From: Candidatus Methylomirabilis oxygeniifera
Lineage (GTDB): Bacteria; Methylomirabilota; Methylomirabilia; Methylomirabilales; Methylomirabilaceae
NCBI GenBank assembly: GCA_000091165.1
Contig: FP565575.1
Location: 2,490,001 to 2,522,000, forward strand
DNA length: 32,000 bases
Direction: 5' to 3'
Shown: piece by piece, positions 1,041 through 27,923 of the stretch
How positions within the stretch are numbered: the stretch's first letter is position 1
How the letters are laid out: each line of letters begins with the position of its first letter
Translations under genes and position numbers: made by a program
Notes under the pieces: model-generated
What the model was told of the DNA's origin: nothing
Database searches by the model: none
What the model saw: the letters and a program-made list of their open reading frames with translations, nothing else

Positions 1041-1402
1041 ATGGTACAGCCACTCACCATGACGGTTTCAGATACAGGGACGACCGATCTGGATGGCTTG
1101 AACGTGGCCCAGCAGGCGGCGGTCACGCACGGCGATGGCCCGTTGCTGATCATTGCGGGCGCCGGGACGGGGAAGACCACGGTGATCGCGCGCACCGGAT
1201 CGCCCACCCGATCAACAGCAGGCGAGTCCGGCCGGAGCAGGTGCTGGCGCTGACCTTTACCGAGAAGGCGGCGGCGGAGATGGAGCGGCGTGTCGACCTG
1301 CTGGTTCCGTACGGCTTCACCGATACCTGGATCTCCACCTTTCACGCCTTTGGAGACCGCGTGCTTCGGGAGCACGCCCTGGTGCTGGGGCTGAGTCCGG
1401 AC
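1041..1402 (+). pseudogene. truncated, frameshifted 5' fragment of the UvrD-type helicase-nuclease gene
   Basis: ORF 1041..1253 encodes ...GLNVAQQAAVTHGDGPLLIIAGAGTGKTTVIA, including Walker A. The homologous reading (RIAHPINSRRVRPEQVLALTFTEKAAAEMERRVDLLVPYGFTDTWISTFHAFGDRVLREHALVLGLSPD) then continues in the frame of ORF 941..1459. The shift comes from a 2-nt indel near 1190 relative to 6494..6500. Homology to 6347..9322 stops abruptly at 1402. Confidence 0.85.
1095..1402 (+). repeat. direct repeat, copy 1 (308 nt) of helicase 5' coding sequence
   Basis: Hand alignment with 6401..6706 shows 13 substitutions plus one 2-nt indel, including a perfectly identical stretch of more than 100 nt. The right boundary is sharp (1402 vs 6706). 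The left boundary fades into diverged N-terminal codons. Confidence 0.9.
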
Positions 1403-1437: not shown

Positions 1438-2043
1438 TCATCCCACAGCCTCCAGATAGGGGCGGATCAGTGTCACGCGGTCCACCGGAGCGAAGCGCCA
1501 GACGGCCTCCAGGCGTTTAGGGTACATCCTCCGGTAGTCGCGCAGCGCCTCGATGGCGACGTCGATGCCGATCTTGTTGCGGAACTTGAAACAGTCCGCG
1601 ACGGTCTTGGCCGCGCTGAACACCCGTACCGTCACGCCGGAGATGCGGTGCTCCTCCACCCCTTCCAGCAACGCGGGGCCTGACAGGTAGAACAGCCGCA
1701 GGGGAGGCTGCTCCAGTCGCGGCCTCCACGCTTTGCGGTCGATCGCCATCCAGATCTCGAACGGGTTCTGCGTGGTAAGCCCGTGAAAGCGCAGTGCCAA
1801 CAGTAGGCAGAGGACGCCCACAGGCACGCGGCGCGCGACCTCTACGAGATGCTGTCGCTCCGTTACGGGGGCACCCGGGAGCCGGTAGAGACCGCGCCCC
1901 ACCCGCTCGAGCAGTCCCCTATCCAGCAACCGGCGTAGTTGTATTCTCGAGACGCCAACGCGCTCAATGTCCCGGGAGCGCGCGATCCCAACTCGCTGCA
2001 TCAGCTCTTGAATCTGATCCGGTAGGATGATTCTTGTAGTCAC
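1438..2043 (-). CDS. abiEi: AbiEi-family (type IV TA antitoxin / wHTH regulator) protein, apparently without its AbiEii partner
   Basis: 201 aa with a GTG start. The N-terminus ELMQRVGIARSRDIERVGVSRIQLRRLLDRGLLERVGRGLYRLPG followed by VPVGVLCLLLALRFHGLTTQNP is the pattern I associate with AbiEi N- and C-terminal domains (COG5340). Confidence 0.7.
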   Translation of the reverse strand: MTTRIILPDQIQELMQRVGIARSRDIERVGVSRIQLRRLLDRGLLERVGRGLYRLPGAPVTERQHLVEVARRVPVGVLCLLLALRFHGLTTQNPFEIWMAIDRKAWRPRLEQPPLRLFYLSGPALLEGVEEHRISGVTVRVFSAAKTVADCFKFRNKIGIDVAIEALRDYRRMYPKRLEAVWRFAPVDRVTLIRPYLEAVG

Positions 2044-2495: not shown

Positions 2496-3881
2496 TCAGC
2501 TGCAAGCGCTTGTTGCGCAGCTCGTCGATCTAGCGCGCAACCTTGAGAGGTTTGAGCCATCCTTGTCGACGATCTTGCCAGCCGAGACCGATTTTGCATA
2601 GATATCAACTGCTGCCGCCAAGTCGTCGTTCCCGATGATACGCTTCTCCACCGCGCTTTGAAGCATTGCTGCAACCTTGTCTCCTAGCAGTCGCGATTGG
2701 ACGTTCGACACTCGCTCAATCAGGAAGAAGGACTGACCGAGGGAAGGTTCGGTAACAAGCTCATCCAAAAAGAGACGCATTGCCCGAGGAACACCGTAGA
2801 CTCCCCGCTCGAACCGCACAGATCCAAGGTATAGCTCCAGCTGACGGTCTTTCGTGATCACCCGATCGAGCCAAAGTGCCAACAGGATTTCTATCGCCTT
2901 CCGTCGTACGAGCTTCTGATGCTCTTGTATGAATAGCGTACGGGCTAGCTGTTGAGTGATCGTCGACCCTCCGGATCGCCGCCGCGCGCCGCCCAAGCCT
3001 AGGAGTGCCCTTGCGGAACCTCGTAGGCTGAGACCGCGGTGTGAAAAGAACGTCTGGTCTTCGATAAAGACGAGAACCTTCTTGAGGTTGGTAAGATCGA
3101 TCTTCAGCCTTTGGATCTCATAGCTCGCAAGCGTCGCTCTGTAGATCACTTGCTCAAAATTCCCAACGAGCTGGAGCCGGACGCACCGCGCGAGCGAACG
3201 CGCGAAGAGAAGGCTCAAACGCTCATGGGTGTCCAGCAGCGCCTTGCGATAGACGATCGCAAGGAAGATCGCCCAGCCTGCAGCGCCGAGGAATACTAAT
3301 GCTGTTGGAGGGGCGTAAAAGATCCAGTTCCGGGCGAGCAACTGCTTCGACAGTTCAGTCGATACGAAGAGAACCACTGCCGCGGAGAAGCCGGCGATCA
3401 TGAACAGCGGATACGCGACGTAGGTGTTCCATCCGGGGAAGAGGCGTACTGCAAACGGCTCATCCGCTCCCTCAATCCTCCAATTTGGCAGCACGAGCTG
3501 CAGTCGCCCGTAGCTGAGACCGAGCATTCTGCGAAGGACGATCACCTTCCGCGCAGAGAAGACGACTGCCTTCTGTCGGTCGGCGAAATACCGCAGCGTG
3601 ACGATGGAGAAACCAGCGGCGAGAGCGAGAAGGACCGCTAGAGTCAACTCGGGGGCGAGGATAGGCTCAAAGGCGACCGTCAACGGGCCAAGGGAGCCAA
3701 CTATGAGAGATCCAAGCCCAGCGGCGGCAACTATCGAGATGTTGGAGGCGTTGAGGAACACACGCTCCTCGGCTTCGAGGGTCTTCGCAGCCGCCCTGTA
3801 CTCCTCGATTGCGATATCCCGGTGGTCAAAGTGATACGTCGGGAAGTGCTGCTGCCAGCCTTGCTGTTCGTCGTCTATCAT
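2496..3881 (-). CDS. multi-pass membrane protein with C-terminal GT51 peptidoglycan glycosyltransferase (transglycosylase) domain
   Basis: ORF 2496..4028. I prefer the ATG at 3881 (MIDDEQQGW...) because the longer form overlaps the upstream gene, but no clear RBS is present, so the start is uncertain. There are four hydrophobic helices: ISIVAAAGLGSLIVGSLGPLTVAF, LTLAVLLALAAGFSIVTLRYF, YVAYPLFMIAGFSAAVVLFV and ALVFLGAAGWAIFLAIVY. GT51 motifs follow: FIEDQTFFSHRG (EDxxFxxHxG), GGSTITQQLAR, RRKAIE...LELYLG. Confidence 0.75.
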   Translation of the reverse strand: MIDDEQQGWQQHFPTYHFDHRDIAIEEYRAAAKTLEAEERVFLNASNISIVAAAGLGSLIVGSLGPLTVAFEPILAPELTLAVLLALAAGFSIVTLRYFADRQKAVVFSARKVIVLRRMLGLSYGRLQLVLPNWRIEGADEPFAVRLFPGWNTYVAYPLFMIAGFSAAVVLFVSTELSKQLLARNWIFYAPPTALVFLGAAGWAIFLAIVYRKALLDTHERLSLLFARSLARCVRLQLVGNFEQVIYRATLASYEIQRLKIDLTNLKKVLVFIEDQTFFSHRGLSLRGSARALLGLGGARRRSGGSTITQQLARTLFIQEHQKLVRRKAIEILLALWLDRVITKDRQLELYLGSVRFERGVYGVPRAMRLFLDELVTEPSLGQSFFLIERVSNVQSRLLGDKVAAMLQSAVEKRIIGNDDLAAAVDIYAKSVSAGKIVDKDGSNLSRLRARSTSCATSACS

Positions 3882-3927
3882 GTGCGATTTACTGACGGAG
3901 GTTTGTATGCGCGAGCTGCCCAACGCT

Positions 3928-3952
3928 GCGCGTAACCCGCGGGTTAACGCGC
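3928..3952 (-). other. GC-rich intercistronic hairpin between the AbiV-like and GT51 genes
   Basis: GCGCGTAACCCGCGGGTTAACGCGC is a near-perfect palindrome with one bulged base. No U-tract follows on the coding strand. Confidence 0.4.
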
Positions 3953-3955
3953 TTG

Positions 3956-4714
3956 TTAGGCATTCGGCGATTCCGGTCCGATGTTTCGCTGTTCCGAGTC
4001 CTCGAGCTCCTTCCAGATCGGGGCCCACTGTTCCGCCGTGATGAACCCCTTGTCGACCAGTTCCGCGTGCAGCCCGTTCATCGCATCTCGAAACGAGCCC
4101 CCTTTCTCCCGGGCGGCCGCAGCGTGTCTTGCCCAGACCTCCAACTCCTCGAGTGGGTAGTCGCGGAGGTAGTTGATGACGACCGCCGCCTCCCTGAGCA
4201 GAGTCTCGCTACGGTCGCGACAGTCTAGGTTACCGGGCAGGTGCACTGCCACCCCCTCGGGGATCGCGAAGCAATCGCTGTACAAGCCCAACTGCTTCGC
4301 AGCGTCAAGGTCTTCGGGAGATGGACCGTTCGCTTTGACTGCTACGCGCGTTTCCGCATCGAGATTCAGAAGAAGAACGCTTGCCCGCATCTCGATGGCG
4401 AAGTTGAAGAGCTCCGTCTTGGCGCTGTGGCGTCGATATGCACGCCACAGCGCGTCACACGACTGGCGCGGTGCGGCGATGCCGATGAGGATCGACATCA
4501 CGATGTGTGGTTTGCCTGCCTCTTCTAGCGCCAGGACGCATAGAGCAGTGGAGTGGTGAAAGCGTCCTTGCTCATGGAGCATCTTCGCGCTCGCCAGGAG
4601 GTCCAGCGCGTTGAGGCGAGCCGCCTGTATTGCCGCTGCTGCGTCGTGTGGCGTGAGGGGACCCGAGTAGGGTTGAAGACCAACCCTACTCAGTGATGAG
4701 GGCGGCTTGGCCAT
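3956..4714 (-). CDS. AbiV-like HEPN-domain abortive-infection family protein
   Basis: 252 aa, with ATG at 4714 preceded by GGAGA at a 6-nt spacer. LNALDLLASAKMLHEQGRFHHSTALCVLALEEAGK resembles the AbiV-family N-terminal helix pair (A.EE.GK). WRAYRRHSAK contains an R-x4-H HEPN motif. This is family assignment from memory, not a database search. Confidence 0.6.
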   Translation of the reverse strand: MAKPPSSLSRVGLQPYSGPLTPHDAAAAIQAARLNALDLLASAKMLHEQGRFHHSTALCVLALEEAGKPHIVMSILIGIAAPRQSCDALWRAYRRHSAKTELFNFAIEMRASVLLLNLDAETRVAVKANGPSPEDLDAAKQLGLYSDCFAIPEGVAVHLPGNLDCRDRSETLLREAAVVINYLRDYPLEELEVWARHAAAAREKGGSFRDAMNGLHAELVDKGFITAEQWAPIWKELEDSEQRNIGPESPNA

Positions 4715-4742: not shown

Positions 4743-5480
4743 TTAGGCGGACTCCTCTCGTTTGCGCTCACGTGCCCACTCCTGCCAATACCGCGCGTTG
4801 GAAAGGAAGTCACTATCGATGAGCAATCGCCTCCGGACGTCAAACACCCGGAACGTGCGCTCGTAGTCATACGTAACTCCCCAGTAGCCCAGGTAGTCTG
4901 CCGTGGTAACGCCCCGAATCGTTTCATCGACGTCGAGCAGAACACGGAAGCGGCATAGTCGTTGTTCCGGGTCTTGAAAGACCGGTACCTGGATGGAGTA
5001 CGGGTACTCACCCCGCCCGTTGCGGAGGAGTGGGTAGCACTGGCCGAGCGTCTGGAAAATCTGGCCCAGCGACTCATAGATGGAGTCGCTGCAGATCTTG
5101 GTAATGACGACCTCCGCATCGGCAAACGTGAGGTGCAGTTCGCTGATATCGACGTTGCGCTCCGGATTCTGAGACCGCAGCTTCTTGTAGGCGGCCAGAA
5201 ACGGACGAAGGACAAACGACCGAGCCCCGGACTTGAGCAAATCAAATGCAACGCCGTCAGCGACCAGTTTCAGGACGTCATGAATAGAGATGTTGGATAG
5301 CGCGTGAACTGCAAACTCATAAAGACCACCTCCGAGGTCGCCGGGTCTGCTGCGGACCCGCGCCACGTAGTGGGCATCGAGCTCTGACTGGAATTCCCGA
5401 ATGCCGTCCAGCTCGAGAAGGCGGTCAGGACCCTCCTGGATTGCCCAGTACTCGACTTGGAGCGAAAGGGGGTACTCCAT
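4743..5480 (-). CDS. hypothetical protein (245 aa), first gene of the AbiV-like operon
   Basis: Lies within ORF 4743..5633. The ATG at 5480 (MEYPLSLQVEYW...) is preceded by GGAGTGACG. No recognisable motif, no TM segment and no signal peptide. Confidence 0.55.
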   Translation of the reverse strand: MEYPLSLQVEYWAIQEGPDRLLELDGIREFQSELDAHYVARVRSRPGDLGGGLYEFAVHALSNISIHDVLKLVADGVAFDLLKSGARSFVLRPFLAAYKKLRSQNPERNVDISELHLTFADAEVVITKICSDSIYESLGQIFQTLGQCYPLLRNGRGEYPYSIQVPVFQDPEQRLCRFRVLLDVDETIRGVTTADYLGYWGVTYDYERTFRVFDVRRRLLIDSDFLSNARYWQEWARERKREESA

Positions 5481-5666
5481 CGTCACTCCGATCCGCCTAA
5501 CTATAAGTGAGCCGCCCCTGAAACCGACAAAGGCTGGCGGCCTATTTCCTGAATCGACTCGACTCCCAAACGACGAATTGGCGTGTAATCTCCCACACTT
5601 AGCCAAACCGGTCAAGCGTATTCTGGCCGACAAATGTTGCCGGCTTCGGAAGCCTATCCCGGTCGG

Positions 5667-5939
5667 CTATCCGATTTTTGACGTCAGTTCTCCCTCAACA
5701 TACCGATGGATGATGCCGGAAATGAGGGTTTGATAGGGGATGCCTAATTCCATGGCTTTCTTTTGAATGCCCTTGTAGTCATGGTCGTAGAGGCGAATGG
5801 TAATCCGTCTGTCCTTGACCAAGGTCTTTCTGGCGGTCGCCTTTATAGCTTCAAGCTCCTTCTTGGACGGAGCGGATAGCTTCATCTGCCCTTTCTCGTA
5901 GGCATCGACAATGGTTTTTTCCTCTTTGCTGTATTTCAT
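5667..5939 (-). CDS. brnA: BrnA-family antitoxin (RHH/CopG-like C-terminus)
   Basis: 90 aa. RITIRLYDHDYKGIQKKAMELGIPYQTLISGIIHRYVEGEL matches the BrnA pattern (..IPYQTLI..). It lies 6 nt downstream of the BrnT-like gene, the toxin-first order typical of BrnTA. Confidence 0.7.
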   Translation of the reverse strand: MKYSKEEKTIVDAYEKGQMKLSAPSKKELEAIKATARKTLVKDRRITIRLYDHDYKGIQKKAMELGIPYQTLISGIIHRYVEGELTSKIG

Positions 5940-5945
5940 GTGTTG

Positions 5946-6224
5946 TTAACCCTCCTGCTCCTTTTTGTATGCTTGGGTTGCCTTTCGACTCGGAATAATG
6001 GTCTTCAAGAAGATGTCATCCTTTTCTACAACGTGAGGAACAAGATAAATGTAGTCTTCCACAACCACAAAGTATATTCGCTGTCCGGGATAGTTCTCTT
6101 GATCGGGGTGATCGGTAAGTTTCCAGACGTCACCACGAGCCAGATGAAAGAGTATCTTTTCGAAAGAGATCCCTCTTTCCTCCTTTAACCACTCGTTCTT
6201 CTCGGAGTCCCATTCATATTTCAT
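5946..6224 (-). CDS. brnT: BrnT-family (DUF497) toxin
   Basis: 92 aa. MKYEWDSEKNEWLKEERGISFEKI fits the BrnT N-terminal signature (F/YEWD..K...N..K.G.sFeE). GC content is low relative to the rest of the window. Confidence 0.7.
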   Translation of the reverse strand: MKYEWDSEKNEWLKEERGISFEKILFHLARGDVWKLTDHPDQENYPGQRIYFVVVEDYIYLVPHVVEKDDIFLKTIIPSRKATQAYKKEQEG

Positions 6225-6346: not shown

Positions 6347-9322
6347 ATGGTGGAAGAGCCTCAAGTGATCTCAGAAAGAAATCCTGCGATGGGTGTGGAA
6401 GGCTTGAACGCGGCCCAGCAGGCGGCGGTCACGCACGGCGATGGCCCGTTGCTCATCATTGCGGGCGCCGGGACGGGGAAGACCACCGTAATCGCTCACC
6501 GAATCGCCCACCTGATCAACAGCAGGCGGGCCCGGCCGGAACAGGTGCTGGCGCTGACCTTTACCGAGAAGGCGGCGGCGGAGATGGAGCGGCGTGTCGA
6601 CCTGCTGGTTCCGTACGGCTTCACCGATACCTGGATCTCCACCTTCCACGCCTTTGGAGACCGTGTGCTTCGGGAGCACGCCCTAGTGCTGGGGCTGAGT
6701 CCGGACTTCCGCCTGCTGACGGTGCCGGAGCAGGTCATCTTCTTTCAGGAGCATCTGTTCGAGCTTCCATTAGACTATTTCCGGCCGCTCGGTAGTCCGC
6801 TGCGGCATGTGCAGGCGCTGCTTCAACTGTTCAGTCGAGCCAAGGACGAGGATGTCGGCCCTGAGCAGTACGCGAGTTACGCGGAGGAGCTGGTCGGTCG
6901 AGCGACGGCCGCTCCGGACGACAAGACGCTGGCGGAGCAGGCGACGCGGGAGATGGAGATCGCCAGGGTCTACCGGCAGTACCAGGAGCTGATGGCGCGA
7001 GAAGGGAAGCTGGACTTCGGTGATCTGATGGTGCGGACACTGGACTTACTTCGGGAACACCCGCTGGTGCTCCAACGGTTGCAGGAGCGGTTCCGGTATA
7101 TCCTGGTCGATGAGTTCCAGGATACCAACTACGCCCAGTTTCAGATTGTGAAGCTGCTCACGGCCTCCCATCGGAATGTGACGGTGGTGGGGGATGACGA
7201 CCAGTCGATCTTCAAATTTCGAGGGGCCTCGATCAGCAACATCCTCAGCTTCCGCCGTGAGTTTCCTGACGCCGAGACGATCGTCCTTGCAGAGAACTAT
7301 CGCTCGACCTCAAGCGTCCTCGATGCCGCGTACCGTCTGATCCAGCACAACAACCCTGATCGACTGGAGTATCAGGAAGGTGTCGACAAGCGCCTGAAGC
7401 CTTGCAATGGTGACGGCCCGGCCGTTGAGAGCGTAGTCTTCCAGACCTATCAGGAAGAGGCCGACTGGGTGGTCGAAAAGATCGAGGAACTGATCGAGGC
7501 CAAGGCGTGCGCGCTTGGCGACATCGCCATTCTGGTCCGGCGAAACAGCGATGCCGACCCATTGCTCCGAGCACTGAACATGAAGGGAATCCCCTGGAGC
7601 TTCAGCGGGGCGAAGGGTCTGTACGACAGGGATGAGATACGTCTGGTGATCTCGTTCCTCCGCCTACTGGCTGATCCATACGACTCCCTGAGTCTCTTTC
7701 ATCTGGCTGGCTCCGATATCTACGGGTTGCCGGCTGCCGATTTGACCCTCTGCAACGCCCATGCGCGCCGGAAGCATCGCAGTCTCTATGAGGTGTTGCT
7801 CGATCTGACGAGGCGACCAGGCGCTGTGCCCGAGCTGTCCGGGGTCTCGACTGAAGGGATCGCTGCTGCCACGGCCCTCCTGAGTGATTTGCATCGCTAT
7901 CTGGACAAAGCGGCTCGGGAGGTGACGGGACGTATCCTGTACGAGTTCTTGATGGAACAGCCGGGCTACGGCAAGCGACTGCTGCATTCGAACTCCTCGC
8001 GCGATCATCAACGGATCAGCAACCTCGCCGCATTCTTCGGCCTGGTTCAGCGGTTCGGCGAGGTGGCGCCCCAGGACCGCGTGGCCGGCTTTGTTCCGTA
8101 TCTGACGATGCTGATCGAGGCGGGCGAGAACCCGCCCGTTGCGGAGGGTGAGGCGGCAGAGGAAGGGGTGGCCGTGCTCACGCTGCACAAGGCCAAGGGC
8201 CTCGAGTTCGAGGCGGTGTTTCTCGTAGGCCTGGTCGAGAAACGGTTTCCCTCGATCGATCGGCGGGAGGCAATCCCGCTTCCCGATGAGCTGATCAAGG
8301 AGACGCTACCGTCCGGCGACTTTCATCAGCAGGAGGAGCGACGTCTGTTCTACGTTGGCATGACCCGGGCCAAGCGGCACCTGTTCCTCACGCGGGCGAA
8401 AGATTACGGGACAAAGCGGGAGTGGAAGCGTAGCCGGTTCCTGGCGGAGGCGCTGGCCCTGCCGAGAGAGGAGGAAGAGCAGCCCTGGCGAGGGACGGCA
8501 GAGGCGGTCATAGGTCGATACGCGCCGCCGCCCCAGGTCGCCATCGATCTTGCGATCCGGGCTGACACCCCGCTCAGCCTCTCGCACTATCAGATCGATG
8601 ACTATCTGACCTGCCCGTTGAAATACAAATATGTCCATATCCTGCGGGTGCCTGTGCTCAGAGAGCATACGATCATCTACGGCGCCGCGCTGCATCGGGC
8701 CGTTCAGGCGTATAATACCCAACGGCTTACCGGGCAAACAATGTCGCTTGACGATCTGATCAAATCGTTTGAAGCCCACTGGGTCAATGAAGGGTTCATC
8801 TCCCGGGAACACGAGGAGCGGCGAATGCAGGAAGGTCGGGATGCCCTGACCCGCTTCCATGCCGGTGCCGCGAAGGGACCGCTGCCGACGTCGGTCGAGA
8901 AACGATTCCGGTTCCAGCTCGGTGACGATCTCGTCACCGGTATTATGGATCGGGTAGATGAGCGTGAGGGTGAGACCGTAATTATCGACTATAAGTCGTC
9001 GTCGGTCCGGGACCAAAAAGCGGCAGACAAAGAGGCCCGGGAGAGCCAGCAACTTGCGCTGTATGCGCTGGCCTACCGGGAATCGATCGGCCGGTTGCCG
9101 GATCGGGTGGAGTTGCATTTCCTGACCCCCGGCGGCGTCATCGTCGGGCAGGCGGTGAAAAAGGAAAAAGATCTCGATCAGGCGGTCGAACGGGTTCGGG
9201 CGGCTGCAACCGGGATTCGGGCAGGTCTCTTTCAGGCGACCCCCAGTCAGTGGGTCTGCAGCTTCTGCGCCTTCAGGACCATCTGTCCTGCCACCGTGTG
9301 GATCGGGGAGCACCAGGGATGA
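6347..9322 (+). CDS. UvrD/PcrA-family SF1 helicase fused to a C-terminal PD-(D/E)XK (Cas4/AddB-like, Cys-cluster) nuclease
   Basis: 991 aa. Helicase motifs: AGAGTGKTT, LTFTEKAAAEM, VDEFQDTN, VVGDDDQSIFKFRGA, NYRS, TLHKAKGLEFEAVFLVG, ERRLFYVGMTRAK. Nuclease motifs: YLTCPLKY, IMDRVDE...VIIDYKSS, QLALYALAY, and CSFCAFRTIC at the C-terminus. The start is uncertain (ATG 6347 has GAGGA too close; 6389 is an alternative). Confidence 0.9.
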   Translation: MVEEPQVISERNPAMGVEGLNAAQQAAVTHGDGPLLIIAGAGTGKTTVIAHRIAHLINSRRARPEQVLALTFTEKAAAEMERRVDLLVPYGFTDTWISTFHAFGDRVLREHALVLGLSPDFRLLTVPEQVIFFQEHLFELPLDYFRPLGSPLRHVQALLQLFSRAKDEDVGPEQYASYAEELVGRATAAPDDKTLAEQATREMEIARVYRQYQELMAREGKLDFGDLMVRTLDLLREHPLVLQRLQERFRYILVDEFQDTNYAQFQIVKLLTASHRNVTVVGDDDQSIFKFRGASISNILSFRREFPDAETIVLAENYRSTSSVLDAAYRLIQHNNPDRLEYQEGVDKRLKPCNGDGPAVESVVFQTYQEEADWVVEKIEELIEAKACALGDIAILVRRNSDADPLLRALNMKGIPWSFSGAKGLYDRDEIRLVISFLRLLADPYDSLSLFHLAGSDIYGLPAADLTLCNAHARRKHRSLYEVLLDLTRRPGAVPELSGVSTEGIAAATALLSDLHRYLDKAAREVTGRILYEFLMEQPGYGKRLLHSNSSRDHQRISNLAAFFGLVQRFGEVAPQDRVAGFVPYLTMLIEAGENPPVAEGEAAEEGVAVLTLHKAKGLEFEAVFLVGLVEKRFPSIDRREAIPLPDELIKETLPSGDFHQQEERRLFYVGMTRAKRHLFLTRAKDYGTKREWKRSRFLAEALALPREEEEQPWRGTAEAVIGRYAPPPQVAIDLAIRADTPLSLSHYQIDDYLTCPLKYKYVHILRVPVLREHTIIYGAALHRAVQAYNTQRLTGQTMSLDDLIKSFEAHWVNEGFISREHEERRMQEGRDALTRFHAGAAKGPLPTSVEKRFRFQLGDDLVTGIMDRVDEREGETVIIDYKSSSVRDQKAADKEARESQQLALYALAYRESIGRLPDRVELHFLTPGGVIVGQAVKKEKDLDQAVERVRAAATGIRAGLFQATPSQWVCSFCAFRTICPATVWIGEHQG
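6401..6706 (+). repeat. direct repeat, copy 2 (306 nt), part of the intact helicase gene
   Basis: See copy 1 (1095..1402). Confidence 0.9.
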
Positions 9323-24593: not shown

Positions 24594-24611
24594 CAAATGA
24601 GAGGGAATGCA

Positions 24612-27600
24612 ATGAATACGGAATTCCATAAAATGGATCAAGAGGCGCTGCCGCGGCACACTAATAGGCTGATCCACGAGACCAGCCCCTACCTCCTGCA
24701 GCATGCCCATAACCCGGTGGACTGGTACCCCTGGGGAGAGGAGGCGCTCCGCCGGGCCAGGGAGGAGAACCGTCCGATCCTGCTCAGCATCGGCTACTCC
24801 GCCTGTCACTGGTGCCATGTGATGGCGCATGAGTCGTTCGAGAGCGAGCAGATCGCCGAGCTGATGAACCGGTATTTCGTGTGCATCAAGGTCGATAGGG
24901 AGGAGCGACCCGACCTCGATGCGATCTACATGGCGGCCACGCTGGCCCTGAATCATGGGCAGGGCGGGTGGCCGATGACCGTGTTTCTGACCCCTGACCT
25001 GCAGCCGTTCTTCGCGGGGACCTACTTCCCACCCAGGGATGGGTTGGGCCGCCCGGGATTCCCGACGATCCTAAATCGGGTTGCGCAGGTCTGGCGCGAG
25101 CAGCCCGACGCCCTCCGCACCCAATCGGACAAAATTACTGAAGGCTTGCGCGAGAGTTCTCGCCCCTCCTTGCCTATGCCGGTGGGACGGGCTGAGATCG
25201 CTGCCGCCGTTGCCCACTTCGCGGCAACCTTCGATCCGACCTTTGGCGGGTTCGGCGCCGCCCCCAAGTTCCCCGCAGCAACAGCATTGTCGCTCCTGCT
25301 GCGCCACCACCAACACACCGGGGATGCCCACGCCCTGCAGATGGTGCGGACGACGCTCGACGCCATGGCACGGGGCGGGATCTACGACCAGATCGGCGGC
25401 GGCTTTGCCAGGTACTCGACCGACGAGCGCTGGTTGATCCCCCACTTCGAGAAGATGCTCTACGACAATGCGCTGCTGGCCAGAACCTATCTGGAGGCCT
25501 TCCAGGTGGCCGGCGACCCGTCCTATCGGCAAATCGCGACCGAACTCCTCGACTATATTCTACGCGAGATGACCGCGCTGGAGGGAGGGTTTTACTCGGC
25601 CACCGATGCCGACTCGGAAGGAGTCGAGGGGAAGTTTTATGTCTGGACGCCGGCCGAGATCGAGGCGATTCTGGGGCAGGAGGAGGCACGCCGGTTCTGC
25701 GCCTATTACGACATCACGCCCACCGGCAACTGGGAGGGCAGGTCGATCCCCAATATCCGCCGCACGGCCGCGCAGGTGGCAGCAAAGCTTGGGGTCAGTG
25801 TCGAGGAGCTTGCCGCCTCTATCGATCGGACGCAGCCCAAGGTCTATGAGGCTCGTCGAAAGCGGGTGCCACCCGGACTGGATGACAAGATTCTCACCGC
25901 CTGGAACGGTCTGATGGTCAGCGCGATGGCCGAGGGATACCGTGTCCTCGGCGAACGGCGTCACCTTGACGCCGCCGTTCGCGCGGCCGACTTCTTGCTC
26001 TCTACGCTCCTCCGACCTGACGGTCGGCTGCTCCGGACCTACCGGAGCGGCGTCGCGCATCTGAACGCCTACCTTGAGGATTATGCCTGCCTCTGCGAAG
26101 GGCTGATCGATCTGTACGAGGCGGGCGGCGAAACCCGCTATCTCCGTGAGGCCGTCCGACTAGCCGAGCGTATGCCGGGCGATTTCGCCGATGAAGAGAG
26201 CGGCGCCTTCCACACCACCTCGCGCGATCACGAAACGCTGATCCTGCGCTATCGAGAGGGAACGGATGGCGCCACCCCCAGCGGTAACGCCGTCGCGGCC
26301 TCGGCGCTGACTCGCCTCTCATTTCACCTGAACCGGGAGGAGTGGCGAAGGGCGGCCGAGCAGGCGATCAGCGCGTATGGGCAGCAGATCGCCCGCTATC
26401 CGCACGCCTTCGCCAAGAGCCTCGCCGTCGTGGACCTCCTCCTGGAGGGGCCGGTGGAGCTCTGCCTGATCGGCAACCCGGCAGAGGCGGGGTGTGAGGC
26501 GCTACGCCGGGAGGTTGGGCGTCACTTCATCCCGAACCGGATCATTGCGCATCACGATCCGACCAAAGGCAATCCGCCCGAGCTCCCTCTGCTGAGGGGG
26601 AAGGGGTTAGTCGATGGTCGCGCGGCGCTGTATCTCTGCCGGAACTTTACCTGTCAGGCTCCCATCACTGATCCCGCGCAGGTAGCCGAACTCCTTGGCG
26701 CTGCCGCGCGGCGTGGAGCAGGCGGCAGACGGTCAGCCGTCGGGAGCTTCCTGCAGGGCAGCGCAACGGAGGCCGGCACCGCAGCCTACGCACAACGCTT
26801 CACCCCATCAGGCTACGGGCCGCTCGGAGCAACCGGCCTGAGCGCCAGCAAGCTGGGCTTCGGGGGCTACCGGATCGACGATGAGACGCCCGAGCACACC
26901 GAAGCCCTCGAGCAGGCACTGCGCCATGGCTGCAACCTGATCGACACCTCCACCAACTACACAGATGGCGGCAGCGAGCGGTGCGTCGGCGCCGTCCTGG
27001 GTAAGCTCGCGCGTACCGGAACGCTTAGGCGCGAGGAGGTCATTGTCGTCTCGAAGATCGGCTACGTCCAGGGACAGAACCTGGAGCTGGCCCAGAAGCG
27101 AGAGGCGGAGGACAGGCCGTTTCCAGAGATGGTCAAATATATGGAGGGCTGCTGGCACTGCATACATCCGGAGTTTCTGCGCGATCAGCTTGAACGGTCG
27201 CTCACCCGGCTGCAGATCGAGACCCTCGATGTCTGCCTGCTGCACAATCCTGAGTACTTCCTCTCAGACGCCAGGGCGCGCAGGCGCGGCGACCTGGAGT
27301 CTGCTCGTAACGAGTTCTACCGGCGGCTGCAAGAGGCCTTTCGCTTCTTCGAAAGTCAAGTGGCAGCCGGTACGATCCGATGGTATGGCGTCTCTTCAAA
27401 CACCGTCGTGGCGCCTGCGGCTGATCCGGAGGCGACGTCGCTGACCCGAATGCTGGCCGCCGCGCGAGAGGCTGGTGGGCCGGCCCACCACTTCCGGATC
27501 CTTCAGCTCCCGATGAATCTGTTCGAGGCGGGCGCGCTTCTCACGCAGAACACCGGACCGGACAATCGGCAGACAGCGCTGGAGGCCGCATCCGGCGCGG

Positions 27601-27923
27601 CAATCGGTGCCCTGGTCAACCGGCCGCTCAATGCCATCGTCGGCGACAGGATGGTCCGGCTGGCGGCGAGTTCCAGCCGGCGCGTTCATGACGCGATCTC
27701 GGCGGCTATCGATCCGCTACTCTCTGAGGCGCGACGAGGCGAGAGCCTGTCCCGCAAGGCGCTCTGGGCCCTGGCCAGCACCCCGGGCGTCAGTTGCGTC
27801 CTGAACGGCATGCGCACCCGCGACTATGTTCATGACTCGCTCGGTATCCTGCCCTGGCCTCCGCTCGCTGACGTCATCCCGATCTATCAGGCTGCGCAGG
27901 ACCTCACGCTTCACGAGGTCTAG
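24612..27923 (+). CDS. fusion protein: thioredoxin-like DUF255/YyaL (six-hairpin glycosidase-like) module + C-terminal aldo/keto reductase
   Basis: The ATG at 24612 is preceded by GAGGGA (5-nt spacer). N-terminal part: [29 protein letters not shown] and [17 protein letters not shown] (DUF255 hallmark). C-terminal part from about residue 720: [29 protein letters not shown] (the AKR D/Y/K/H tetrad context). Single uninterrupted ORF. Confidence 0.85.

Follow-up and report, generated by a model that had tools for sequence, protein, structure and literature searches.

What could a peptidoglycan polymerase do for its host when it is carried behind four transmembrane (TM) helices in the midst of abortive-infection genes? 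This question is raised by a gene on the minus strand (positions 2496..3881, stop codon 2496-2498) of a 32,000-nucleotide stretch of the Candidatus Methylomirabilis oxygeniifera genome (contig FP565575.1, positions 2,490,001 to 2,522,000), which in its entirety is referred to as the window. The gene is contained in the list of open reading frames (ORFs) and codes for a protein of 461 residues, which combines a four-helix membrane module with a glycosyltransferase (GT) domain of family GT51 and is 50-70% identical to full-length homologues. GT51 polymerases are textbook enzymes of the outer membrane face and well-known antibiotic targets. We propose, assigning a probability of roughly 0.4 to the whole chain of arguments, that we are dealing with a defence-island protein, stand-alone and horizontally mobile, of the type of Audmula, an antiphage protein of Lactococcus lactis, and that it acts on lipid II, probably before this precursor is flipped.

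The GT51 peptidoglycan glycosyltransferase domain comprises residues 263-442 (positions 2556..3095, minus strand) and is recognised by Pfam, NCBIfam, a PDB profile search and Foldseek alike. The Pfam family Transgly (PF00912) matches residues 265-393 with an E-value of 6.2e-29 and a score of 101.1 bits, compared to a cut-off of 27, and with a profile of the protein's own family, residues 267-442 align over the full GT domain of MtgA from S. aureus (5zzk/3vmq; E 1e-24). An earlier note on this DNA, made from its letters alone, had recommended superposing an AlphaFold model on GT51 structures. The AlphaFold2 (AF2) model, built on 118 sequences (pLDDT 85.1, pTM 0.81), has GT51 structures as its only PDB matches in Foldseek, with TMt values of 0.74-0.76 and a root-mean-square deviation of about 3 Å for 3nb6, 2oqo and 3d3h. 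The GT domain of Aquifex PBP1a is matched with a TM of 0.74-0.76, and the lysozyme-like fold with its head and jaw is recovered with 3nb6, 2oqo, 3d3h and 3vmt (TMt 0.61-0.76, probability 1.0).

GT51 enzymes share the consensus motifs EDxxFxxHxG (motif 1), GGSTITQQ (motif 2) and RKxxE (motif 3). In the window protein all three are intact, namely as FIEDQTFFSHRG, which harbours the catalytic E274 (codon at positions 3060-3062), as SGGSTITQQLAR, and as RRKAIE with the catalytic E331 (positions 2889-2891). Conservation was assessed in 77 diverse representatives, extending down to about 30% identity, and in 117 members of a Bacteroidota clade, which amounts to 194 sequences. Residues E274, D275, G304, S306, Q311, R314, R327, K328 and E331 are 100% conserved among them, so that the retention of both catalytic Glu contexts, which the earlier note had claimed for the window protein, holds for its relatives as well. 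Besides these canonical features the family displays peculiarities of its own: an invariant FFLIER (E389/R390) stands where canonical GT51 enzymes have LAGLPxxP, and the Asn of motif 4 is lost (YLxSVRFE). Within the Bacteroidota clade, whose proteins are about 30 residues shorter, motif 2 reads SGGSTIxMQLARTLF, with Met where the canonical QQ has its first Gln (e.g. P0168, P0157, P0402 and P0477), all other catalytic residues being invariant. As already noticed in the first reading, no transpeptidase module is present; the protein ends 19 residues past the GT domain (residue 461), and the GT region is the only one to match profiles. The alignments show the catalytic residues, together with those predicted to bind pyrophosphate and lipid II, to be invariant throughout the family. 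Such a pattern points to an active enzyme under purifying selection and speaks against a decayed or purely ligand-binding domain. A conserved family with an active GT51 enzyme is therefore predicted with high confidence.

Four hydrophobic helices precede this enzyme at residues 46-68, 77-98, 153-176 and 190-211 (Kyte-Doolittle). On the summed Hessa scale the dG values of TM1 to TM4 amount to 3.7, 0.8, 0.9 and -0.6, whereas all other windows of 19 residues reach at least 8. The long helices of the AF2 model (residues 21-62, 77-119, 154-183 and 192-214) coincide with these segments, and the same threshold on the Hessa scale yields four segments in 101 of 118 relatives. This bears out the arrangement that had first drawn attention to the gene, a GT51 domain behind four TM helices; merely its extent needs correction in that the helices do not spread over about 270 residues but fill the first 211 or so, the rest being a linker (residues 212-262).

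The soluble parts of the module are at least as characteristic as its helices. The N-terminal segment (residues 1-45; positions 3747..3881, minus strand as for all parts of this gene), predicted from its charge to be cytoplasmic, carries in the alignments the nearly invariant motif WxQHFPTYxFxxRD...EEY...K..E..ER.F. A first helical hairpin, delineated by hydropathy and AF2 (positions 3588..3746), is made up of TM1, loop 1 (residues 69-76), which is short and free of Lys and Arg (K/R) in the window protein, and TM2. It is followed by the basic loop 2 (residues 99-152; positions 3426..3587), which has many invariant columns and whose K/R counts suggest a cytoplasmic location, and by a second hairpin, recognised by hydropathy (positions 3249..3425), consisting of TM3, the variable loop 3 (residues 177-189) and TM4. 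According to the alignment, a conserved, family-specific juxtamembrane linker (residues 212-262; positions 3096..3248) with the motif YRKALLDTHER...NFEYVIYRA.LA.YE..RL leads over to the enzyme; it is found only together with this GT51 subtype. Outside the catalytic domain, sequence conservation is strongest not in the helices but in the N-terminal segment, loop 2 and the linker after TM4. Loop 2 constitutes the best-conserved non-catalytic stretch and reads ADRQK..F.ARKVIVLRRMLG...LVLPNWRIEGADEP...FPGW, or likewise ADRQK...RKVIVLRRMLG...LPNWRIEGADEP...FPGW. The pLDDT of the AF2 model drops below 50 only at residues 1-16 (positions 3834-3881) and 126-138 (positions 3468-3506), and precisely these stretches are among the most invariant ones (W9, Q11, H12, P14 and Y16; LPNWRIEGADEP). 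Segments which are invariant and yet modelled with low pLDDT are typical of parts that would adopt their fold only in contact with a partner, with a ligand, with another protomer or with the membrane surface. The membrane module matches no Pfam family even at E <= 5, and the linker is likewise devoid of a Pfam match. The N-terminal half of the AF2 model has no structural match in the PDB, and a search of PHROGs returned a match to the generic GT51 region only.

On which side of the membrane does the enzyme reside? The earlier note had called the topology non-trivial since an even number of helices puts both termini on the same side. The number is indeed even, four in the window protein and six in some variants, and the charge distribution permits a more precise prediction. 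According to von Heijne's established positive-inside rule, loops rich in K/R remain in the cytoplasm. Applied to the alignment of 118 sequences, the rule gives mean K+R counts of 6.0 for the N-terminus, 0.36 for loop 1, 8.25 for loop 2, 0.99 for loop 3, 2.6 for the first 15 residues after TM4 and 8.6 for the 51-residue linker. The predicted inside thus carries about 17 K+R versus 1.4 on the predicted outside (family mean), and the window protein on its own 16 versus 2, with nine of them in loop 2. Four K/R of this loop lie within 15 residues of TM2. The same asymmetry is seen independently in the Bacteroidota clade. Because TM3 and TM4 are unambiguous, the C-terminal domain has to be on the same side as loop 2, whatever the marginal TM1 does. 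In the variants P0197, P0211 and P0222 (587-596 residues) as well as P0223 (496 residues), an insertion between TM3 and TM4 adds hydrophobic helices. P0223, examined in detail, has gained two helices with a K/R-rich middle loop, as would be needed to preserve C-in. Taken together, the charge pattern makes it likely that the protein is oriented N-in/C-in, with its GT51 domain on the cytoplasmic face, opposite to the side where the wall is built. The local geometry poses no obstacle to a cytoplasmic GT51 domain as the canonical domains and those of the family both follow the C-terminal end of a TM helix, on the leaflet from which it exits. As a separate observation, helix-adding insertions appear to be tolerated between TM3 and TM4 only.

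A survey of the architecture across genomes, as suggested in the earlier note, uncovered a conserved family with more than 900 clusters at 90% identity, more than 500 of them 50-70% identical to the window protein and 421 belonging to the Bacteroidota clade. The main clade (450-480 residues) includes proteins from Geomonas, Nitrosomonas, Porticoccus, Hydrogenovibrio, Shewanella and many metagenomes, the second one (426-434 residues) proteins from Bacteroidota such as Roseivirga, Flavobacterium, Mesonia and Porphyromonas loveana. A pattern-limited scan of 185,579 species genomes, which yields a lower bound, detected at least 33 loci spanning gamma-, alpha-, delta- and epsilon-proteobacteria, Nitrospirae, Binatia, SAR324 and one metagenome-assembled genome of the Chlamydiales. 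The N-terminal 262 residues alone, compared to 1.84 billion representative proteins by phmmer, retrieved 136 clusters, and in all 77 of those with at least 400 residues the GT51 domain is present. As every long match to the membrane module carries GT51, module and enzyme form an obligate pair, and the module is not a promiscuous sensor. The names under which the sources list family members, "biosynthetic peptidoglycan transglycosylase" or "PBP1A", are mis-annotations. A match on a Leptospira plasmid was rejected as a family member, being an ordinary protein of 758 residues. Judged by these comparisons, the family is a large, patchily distributed and previously unrecognised one of diderm bacteria, in which the four-TM GT51 architecture is conserved.

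The difference from the canonical enzymes is evident in several respects. With the monofunctional MtgA (SaMGT; 3VMT, 3HZS, 6FTB) the window protein shares the GT fold (probability 1.0), motifs 1-3, both Glu residues and the lack of a second enzymatic module. MtgA, however, possesses one N-terminal anchor, is oriented N-in/C-out and is encoded by a conserved housekeeping gene, while the window protein has four helices and, in addition, about 150 conserved residues outside the TM segments, is predicted to be C-in, deviates at the motif-4 Asn and at FFLIER, and has a sporadic, island-borne distribution. In line with this, the MtgA equivalog TIGR02070 scores 75.9 bits, far from its cut-off of 182.65. 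The class A penicillin-binding proteins (PBP1a/1b/1c) resemble the window protein in their GT51 domain, but the latter lacks a transpeptidase, UB2H and OB domains and a single-span anchor; the respective equivalogs (TIGR02074 etc.) score 59-99 bits compared to cut-offs of 494-1275. Immune effectors which attack lipid II before flipping have been proposed in the lipocone paper (PMC12419801). The zeta/PezT UNAG kinases, colicin M, TelC and the Min-Wnt lipocone effectors act, as we propose for the window protein, on the lipid II pathway in biological conflict and thereby halt or distort the synthesis of the wall (PMC12419801). They do so, in contrast, with unrelated folds and by cleaving or phosphorylating precursors, which the window protein would polymerise, and none of them has a GT51 domain.

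A protein of similar build has already been described in a different setting. Audmula, the product of the L. lactis plasmid gene pUCCL630_365, consists of 392 residues and has four N-terminal TM helices according to the text but five according to the figure legend, while its helical C-terminal domain can be superposed with MtgA of S. aureus (3VMR) (Grafakou et al. 2024 NAR, PMC11381338). Protection of Lactococcus against ceduoviruses is conferred by this one gene and takes effect after DNA injection (PMC11381338). Audmula cells have a wall of 27.2 nm compared to 22.6 nm, and with purified c2 endolysin added from outside they lyse about threefold more slowly (Mosterd et al. 2025 PNAS, PMC12184496). 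Phages escape by point mutations within the endolysin's muramidase domain; expression of Audmula is tolerated, and its authors propose a non-abortive, wall-modifying mechanism (PMC12184496). The homologues reported so far are few and come from Lactococcus and Enterococcus. Our literature searches returned nothing on the topology of Audmula or on Gram-negative relatives of it, and the search on GT51 in defence returned nothing on the window family; Audmula emerged from a full-text match.

Compared by description, Audmula and the window protein are both encoded by a single gene and join a four-TM block to a C-terminal MtgA-like domain without a transpeptidase, and both Audmula and the window family are borne by mobile or variable DNA, alongside further defence genes. 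By this measure they are of the same kind in architecture and genomic lifestyle. Audmula is reported with no more than a superfamily-level signature where the window family gives a strong Pfam GT51 match; the two are at best distant relatives. The phmmer search with the membrane module returned no protein of about 392 residues and the module has no match in PLSDB, nor do Lactococcus or Enterococcus appear among the best 120 matches listed in each of the two family searches. A validated analogue already exists in Audmula; what is new is a large family of diderm bacteria whose catalytic motifs are canonical and whose orientation is predicted to be inverted. Whatever the topology, hundreds of clusters from diderm phyla, among them Proteobacteria, Bacteroidota and Nitrospirota, extend the Audmula-type architecture, and this suggests that cell-wall-directed phage defence at the lysis stage is widespread. 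The members with canonical catalytic motifs should, in addition, ease biochemistry.

The genomic surroundings of the family were analysed at 103 non-redundant loci, taken from both reference genomes and metagenomes, and the neighbouring genes were clustered all-against-all. No neighbour family occurs at more than 5 of the 103 loci, and even close relatives differ in their neighbourhoods. In a tblastn search with the proteins encoded next to the window gene, none of AbiV, a 245-residue protein, AbiEi and BrnT/A was found at 37 related loci, and among small flanking ORFs (>= 25 residues) no generally conserved one was found at the 50 loci searched. A multi-gene system and a toxin-immunity pair were both rejected, as neither a recurrent partner nor a recurrent small ORF exists at the loci. 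The neighbours that recur or are otherwise notable include tyrosine integrases, Eco57I/MmeI-type restriction-modification enzymes, UvrD/PD-(D/E)XK helicases, reverse transcriptase, PLD nuclease, NACHT, resolvase, Prim-Pol, Dnd, ThsB-like TIR, HamA, Mrr, HNH, AAA_21, ABC-3C and IS200/Y2 transposases. Among the Pfam matches listed for 229 adjacent genes (111 + 118) there is no cell-wall family (mur, fts, mrd, pbp), so that homologues in cell-wall gene clusters, which the earlier note had envisaged as counter-evidence, did not come to light. A pattern of this kind marks a self-contained accessory gene which travels through variable and defence regions.

How would such an enzyme interfere with an infection? 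Given a GT51 domain with intact donor and acceptor sites, its substrate would be lipid II; the lack of partner genes in very diverse hosts from several phyla argues for a universal substrate and hence likewise for lipid II. On the cytoplasmic face the enzyme would meet lipid II at the inner leaflet, where it is made by MurG, and would polymerise or trap it before MurJ flips the precursor. Polymerisation at this site would lead to oligomers linked to undecaprenyl pyrophosphate, which are not expected to suit the flippase. Lipid II would be drained and the scarce carrier undecaprenyl phosphate tied up, with wall synthesis being perturbed and the sacculus not extended. Dead-end intermediates linked to undecaprenyl are known to deform cells and cause them to lyse. 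Such a perturbation might blunt or mistime the late, lysis-dependent stage of the phage, as reported for Audmula, or else arrest the infected cell. One may speculate that the conserved cytoplasmic segments (residues 1-45, 99-152 and 212-262) keep the enzyme regulated or auto-inhibited, or sense a trigger.

The steps of this proposal deserve different degrees of confidence. A defence role of the GT51 family appears somewhat favoured by the data. That the protein is an immune or conflict effector which polymerises or traps lipid II upstream of MurJ and thereby diverts the undecaprenyl carrier is, in this specific form, possible though rather unlikely. The suggestion of the earlier note that the protein is not a biosynthetic enzyme receives partial support from the island with its defence neighbours and from the Audmula analogue, while its role as a lipid II-consuming effector is something we infer from the sequence features. 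An exclusion factor, also considered at that time, finds no support, Audmula acting after DNA injection. If Audmula shared the cytoplasmic topology, its wall phenotype would be an indirect result of a perturbed lipid II cycle and not the work of an outward polymerase. Should the proposal prove true, a large family aiming the GT51 machinery into the cytoplasm would represent a new manipulation of the lipid II cycle and provide a natural tool to ask whether unflipped lipid II polymerises and what becomes of the products.

Defence might also be achieved by conventional chemistry, if the protein were oriented N-out/C-out or contained an unrecognised fifth span, so that a periplasmic GT51 domain, serving as an additional glycan polymerase free of regulation, would thicken or remodel the wall and lysis by the endolysin would come late or remain poor, as in the model put forward for Audmula. 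This fits the thick wall, the slow lysis by external endolysin, the escape via the muramidase domain and the non-abortive behaviour observed with Audmula (PMC12184496), for which the figure legend, moreover, counts the additional helix (PMC11381338). It is established that all known GT51 enzymes act on the outer face (PMC6053601), and the geometry between TM4 and GT51 loosely fits that of full-length MtgA (3vmt_B, 233 columns). On the other hand, about 17 K/R would then have to be translocated and only about 1.4 would remain in cytoplasmic loops, in the proteobacterial and the Bacteroidota clade alike. A fifth hydrophobic segment is not present, the next best 19-residue windows having a dG of at least 8 and containing three Arg, and P0223 has gained its extra helices as a pair, joined by a basic middle loop. 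Without a transpeptidase the strands would not be cross-linked, which renders the thickening of a thin diderm sacculus less plausible. We regard this explanation as less likely, though of substantial weight; the protein is an Audmula-like defence candidate under either reading of its orientation.

The protein could also be an accessory envelope enzyme unrelated to defence, such as a back-up or stress-specific glycan polymerase, next to which the island genes are merely incidental. Its database names would conform to this, as would those loci with housekeeping genes only, the missing PADLOC match and the absence from phage and plasmid collections. Against this stand its detection in only 33 of 185,579 species genomes (a lower bound), its patchy phyletic pattern and the neighbourhoods varying among close relatives, and among the Pfam matches listed for its neighbours the gene never adjoins mur, fts, mrd or pbp but recurs beside integrases, restriction-modification and Abi/TIR/Hachiman-type genes. 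Since, besides, an analogue of the same architecture, Audmula, is a proven antiphage gene, a function outside defence seems improbable. Even less credit can be given to the notion that GT51 serves as a non-catalytic binding module which senses lipid II or undecaprenyl pyrophosphate and signals through the four-helix module. The highly conserved cytoplasmic loops do resemble an interaction surface, and the uncertainty of AF2 about the invariant residues 1-16 and 126-138 suggests a partner or ligand. A pure binder, however, would normally tolerate loss of the catalytic base, whereas both Glu, D275 and all donor-site residues are invariant in the 194 sequences, and there is neither an output domain nor a conserved partner. 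Because all catalytic residues are invariant, the lipid II-sensing role contemplated in the earlier note is disfavoured, and we consider it very improbable.

Several points weigh against our proposal of a mobile defence protein acting on lipid II from the cytoplasmic face. The orientation has its sole basis in the positive-inside rule, which is a statistical one. The association with defence genes around the GT51 loci is qualitative, and at several loci the neighbours are housekeeping genes only; no family of PADLOC-DB 2.0 matches the protein, and no family member was found in INPHARED phages, IMG/VR or PLSDB. Audmula, on which the functional analogy is built, differs from the family in having no Pfam GT51 match. 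The Audmula phenotypes, namely tolerated expression, a thicker wall, protection from external endolysin and non-abortive behaviour, are explained more simply by an outward-facing polymerase than by a diversion of the precursor, and the thicker wall, delayed lysis and non-abortive outcome speak for a wall-modifying enzyme sooner than for a suicide effector. Finally, a polymerase constitutively active at the inner leaflet would be expected to be toxic, but the family is accompanied by neither an immunity nor an antitoxin gene.

Within the window the GT51 gene forms part of a run of genes on the minus strand, encoding BrnT/BrnA, the 245-residue protein, AbiV, the GT51 protein and AbiEi. Directly upstream of it lies the gene of an AbiV-family HEPN abortive-infection protein (3956..4714; TIGR04498 E 3e-26, PF18728 E 1.6e-17), downstream that of an AbiEi antitoxin-type regulator (1438..2043; PADLOC AbiEi E 5e-76, Pfam AbiEi_4). 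The rest of the island (4743..6224) contains the genes of the conserved hypothetical protein of 245 residues (4743..5480; 110 clusters, no Pfam family), of a BrnA-like antitoxin (5667..5939) and of a BrnT-like toxin (5946..6224), all of them likewise on the minus strand. For the gene at 4743-5480 the product has 245 residues, as opposed to the 296 of the longest ORF. A relative of it is located between GmrSD, TIR and caspase-like genes (L051), and the 245-residue protein is itself a candidate defence gene product.

This block of 5.3 kb is an inserted island. It is bracketed by direct repeats of about 320 bp of the 5' end of a helicase gene, found by repeat search and alignment, and housekeeping genes flank both sides. 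The left copy (1081..1402, plus strand) is a frameshifted 5' fragment, while the right copy (6387..6706) is situated inside the intact UvrD/PD-(D/E)XK helicase gene (6347..9322; Pfam). Both copies are 92-96% identical with an indel of 2 nt, the agreement being perfect toward the 3' end and decaying toward the start codon. The arrangement resembles an insertion into the helicase gene's 5' end that brought along a replacement for it. At the island no integrase is present. No AbiEii toxin gene follows AbiEi, and the helicase fragment begins where AbiEii would stand, which suggests a deletion at the left edge of the island that may also have removed a recombinase.

Concerning the GT51 gene itself, the ORF ending at 2496 has two possible starts, GTG 4028 and ATG 3881. 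The longer version, although in frame, would run into the end of the AbiV gene, and the N-terminus MIxxD... is common to more than 100 full-length homologues in the family alignment; ATG 3881 is therefore the real start. Nothing informative came from searching the surroundings of the gene for RNA elements, tRNAs, promoters and terminators. Met119 within loop 2 (positions 3525-3527) does not vary, and it is the exact start of at least six database proteins belonging to different clusters (P0153, P0166, P0180, P0204, P0209 and P0212), which correspond to TM3-TM4-GT51 forms of about 307-362 residues. These starts may be artefacts of gene calling on contigs that are truncated or frameshifted or, alternatively, reflect an internal start giving rise to a two-helix isoform.

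Some recurrent features of other loci may be added. A UvrD-family helicase, in several cases with PD-(D/E)XK, is encoded within a few kb of the GT51 gene in the window and at no fewer than four further independent loci (L003, L013, L018 and L082). By impression, this is commoner than expected by chance and could be due to a shared insertion hotspot or to defence-type (GajB-like) helicases. Phage_int_SAM_4 tyrosine recombinases (XerC/D- or IntI-like) are found near the GT51 gene at L012, L055, L061, L074 and L103, with a fragment at L042; the one at L061 is divergent and only about 180 nt away from the GT51 gene. The IntI-like integrases at five loci prompted us to consider an integron cassette, which was rejected as a general explanation as attC sites are few: a crude scan combining consensus and fold found attC-like sites downstream of the gene at 1 of 86 loci and upstream at 3 of 88. 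Fuller sites of this kind (GCCTAAC...GTTAGGC/T) adjoin the GT51 genes of L060 and L098. In the window there is no attC-like site downstream of the GT51 ORF. Between the AbiV stop and the GT51 start (3918-3961, minus strand), an imperfect hairpin of 44 nt (dG -24 kcal/mol) with an unpaired T has the attC-like cores GCCTAAC ... GTTGGGC; it is shorter than a typical attC and the sole such site of the island. Unrelated to the island, an ORF of 1108 residues at 24597-27923 (plus strand) of the window encodes an unusual fusion of an N-terminal thioredoxin-like DUF255 domain (Thioredox_DsbH) and an aldo/keto reductase.

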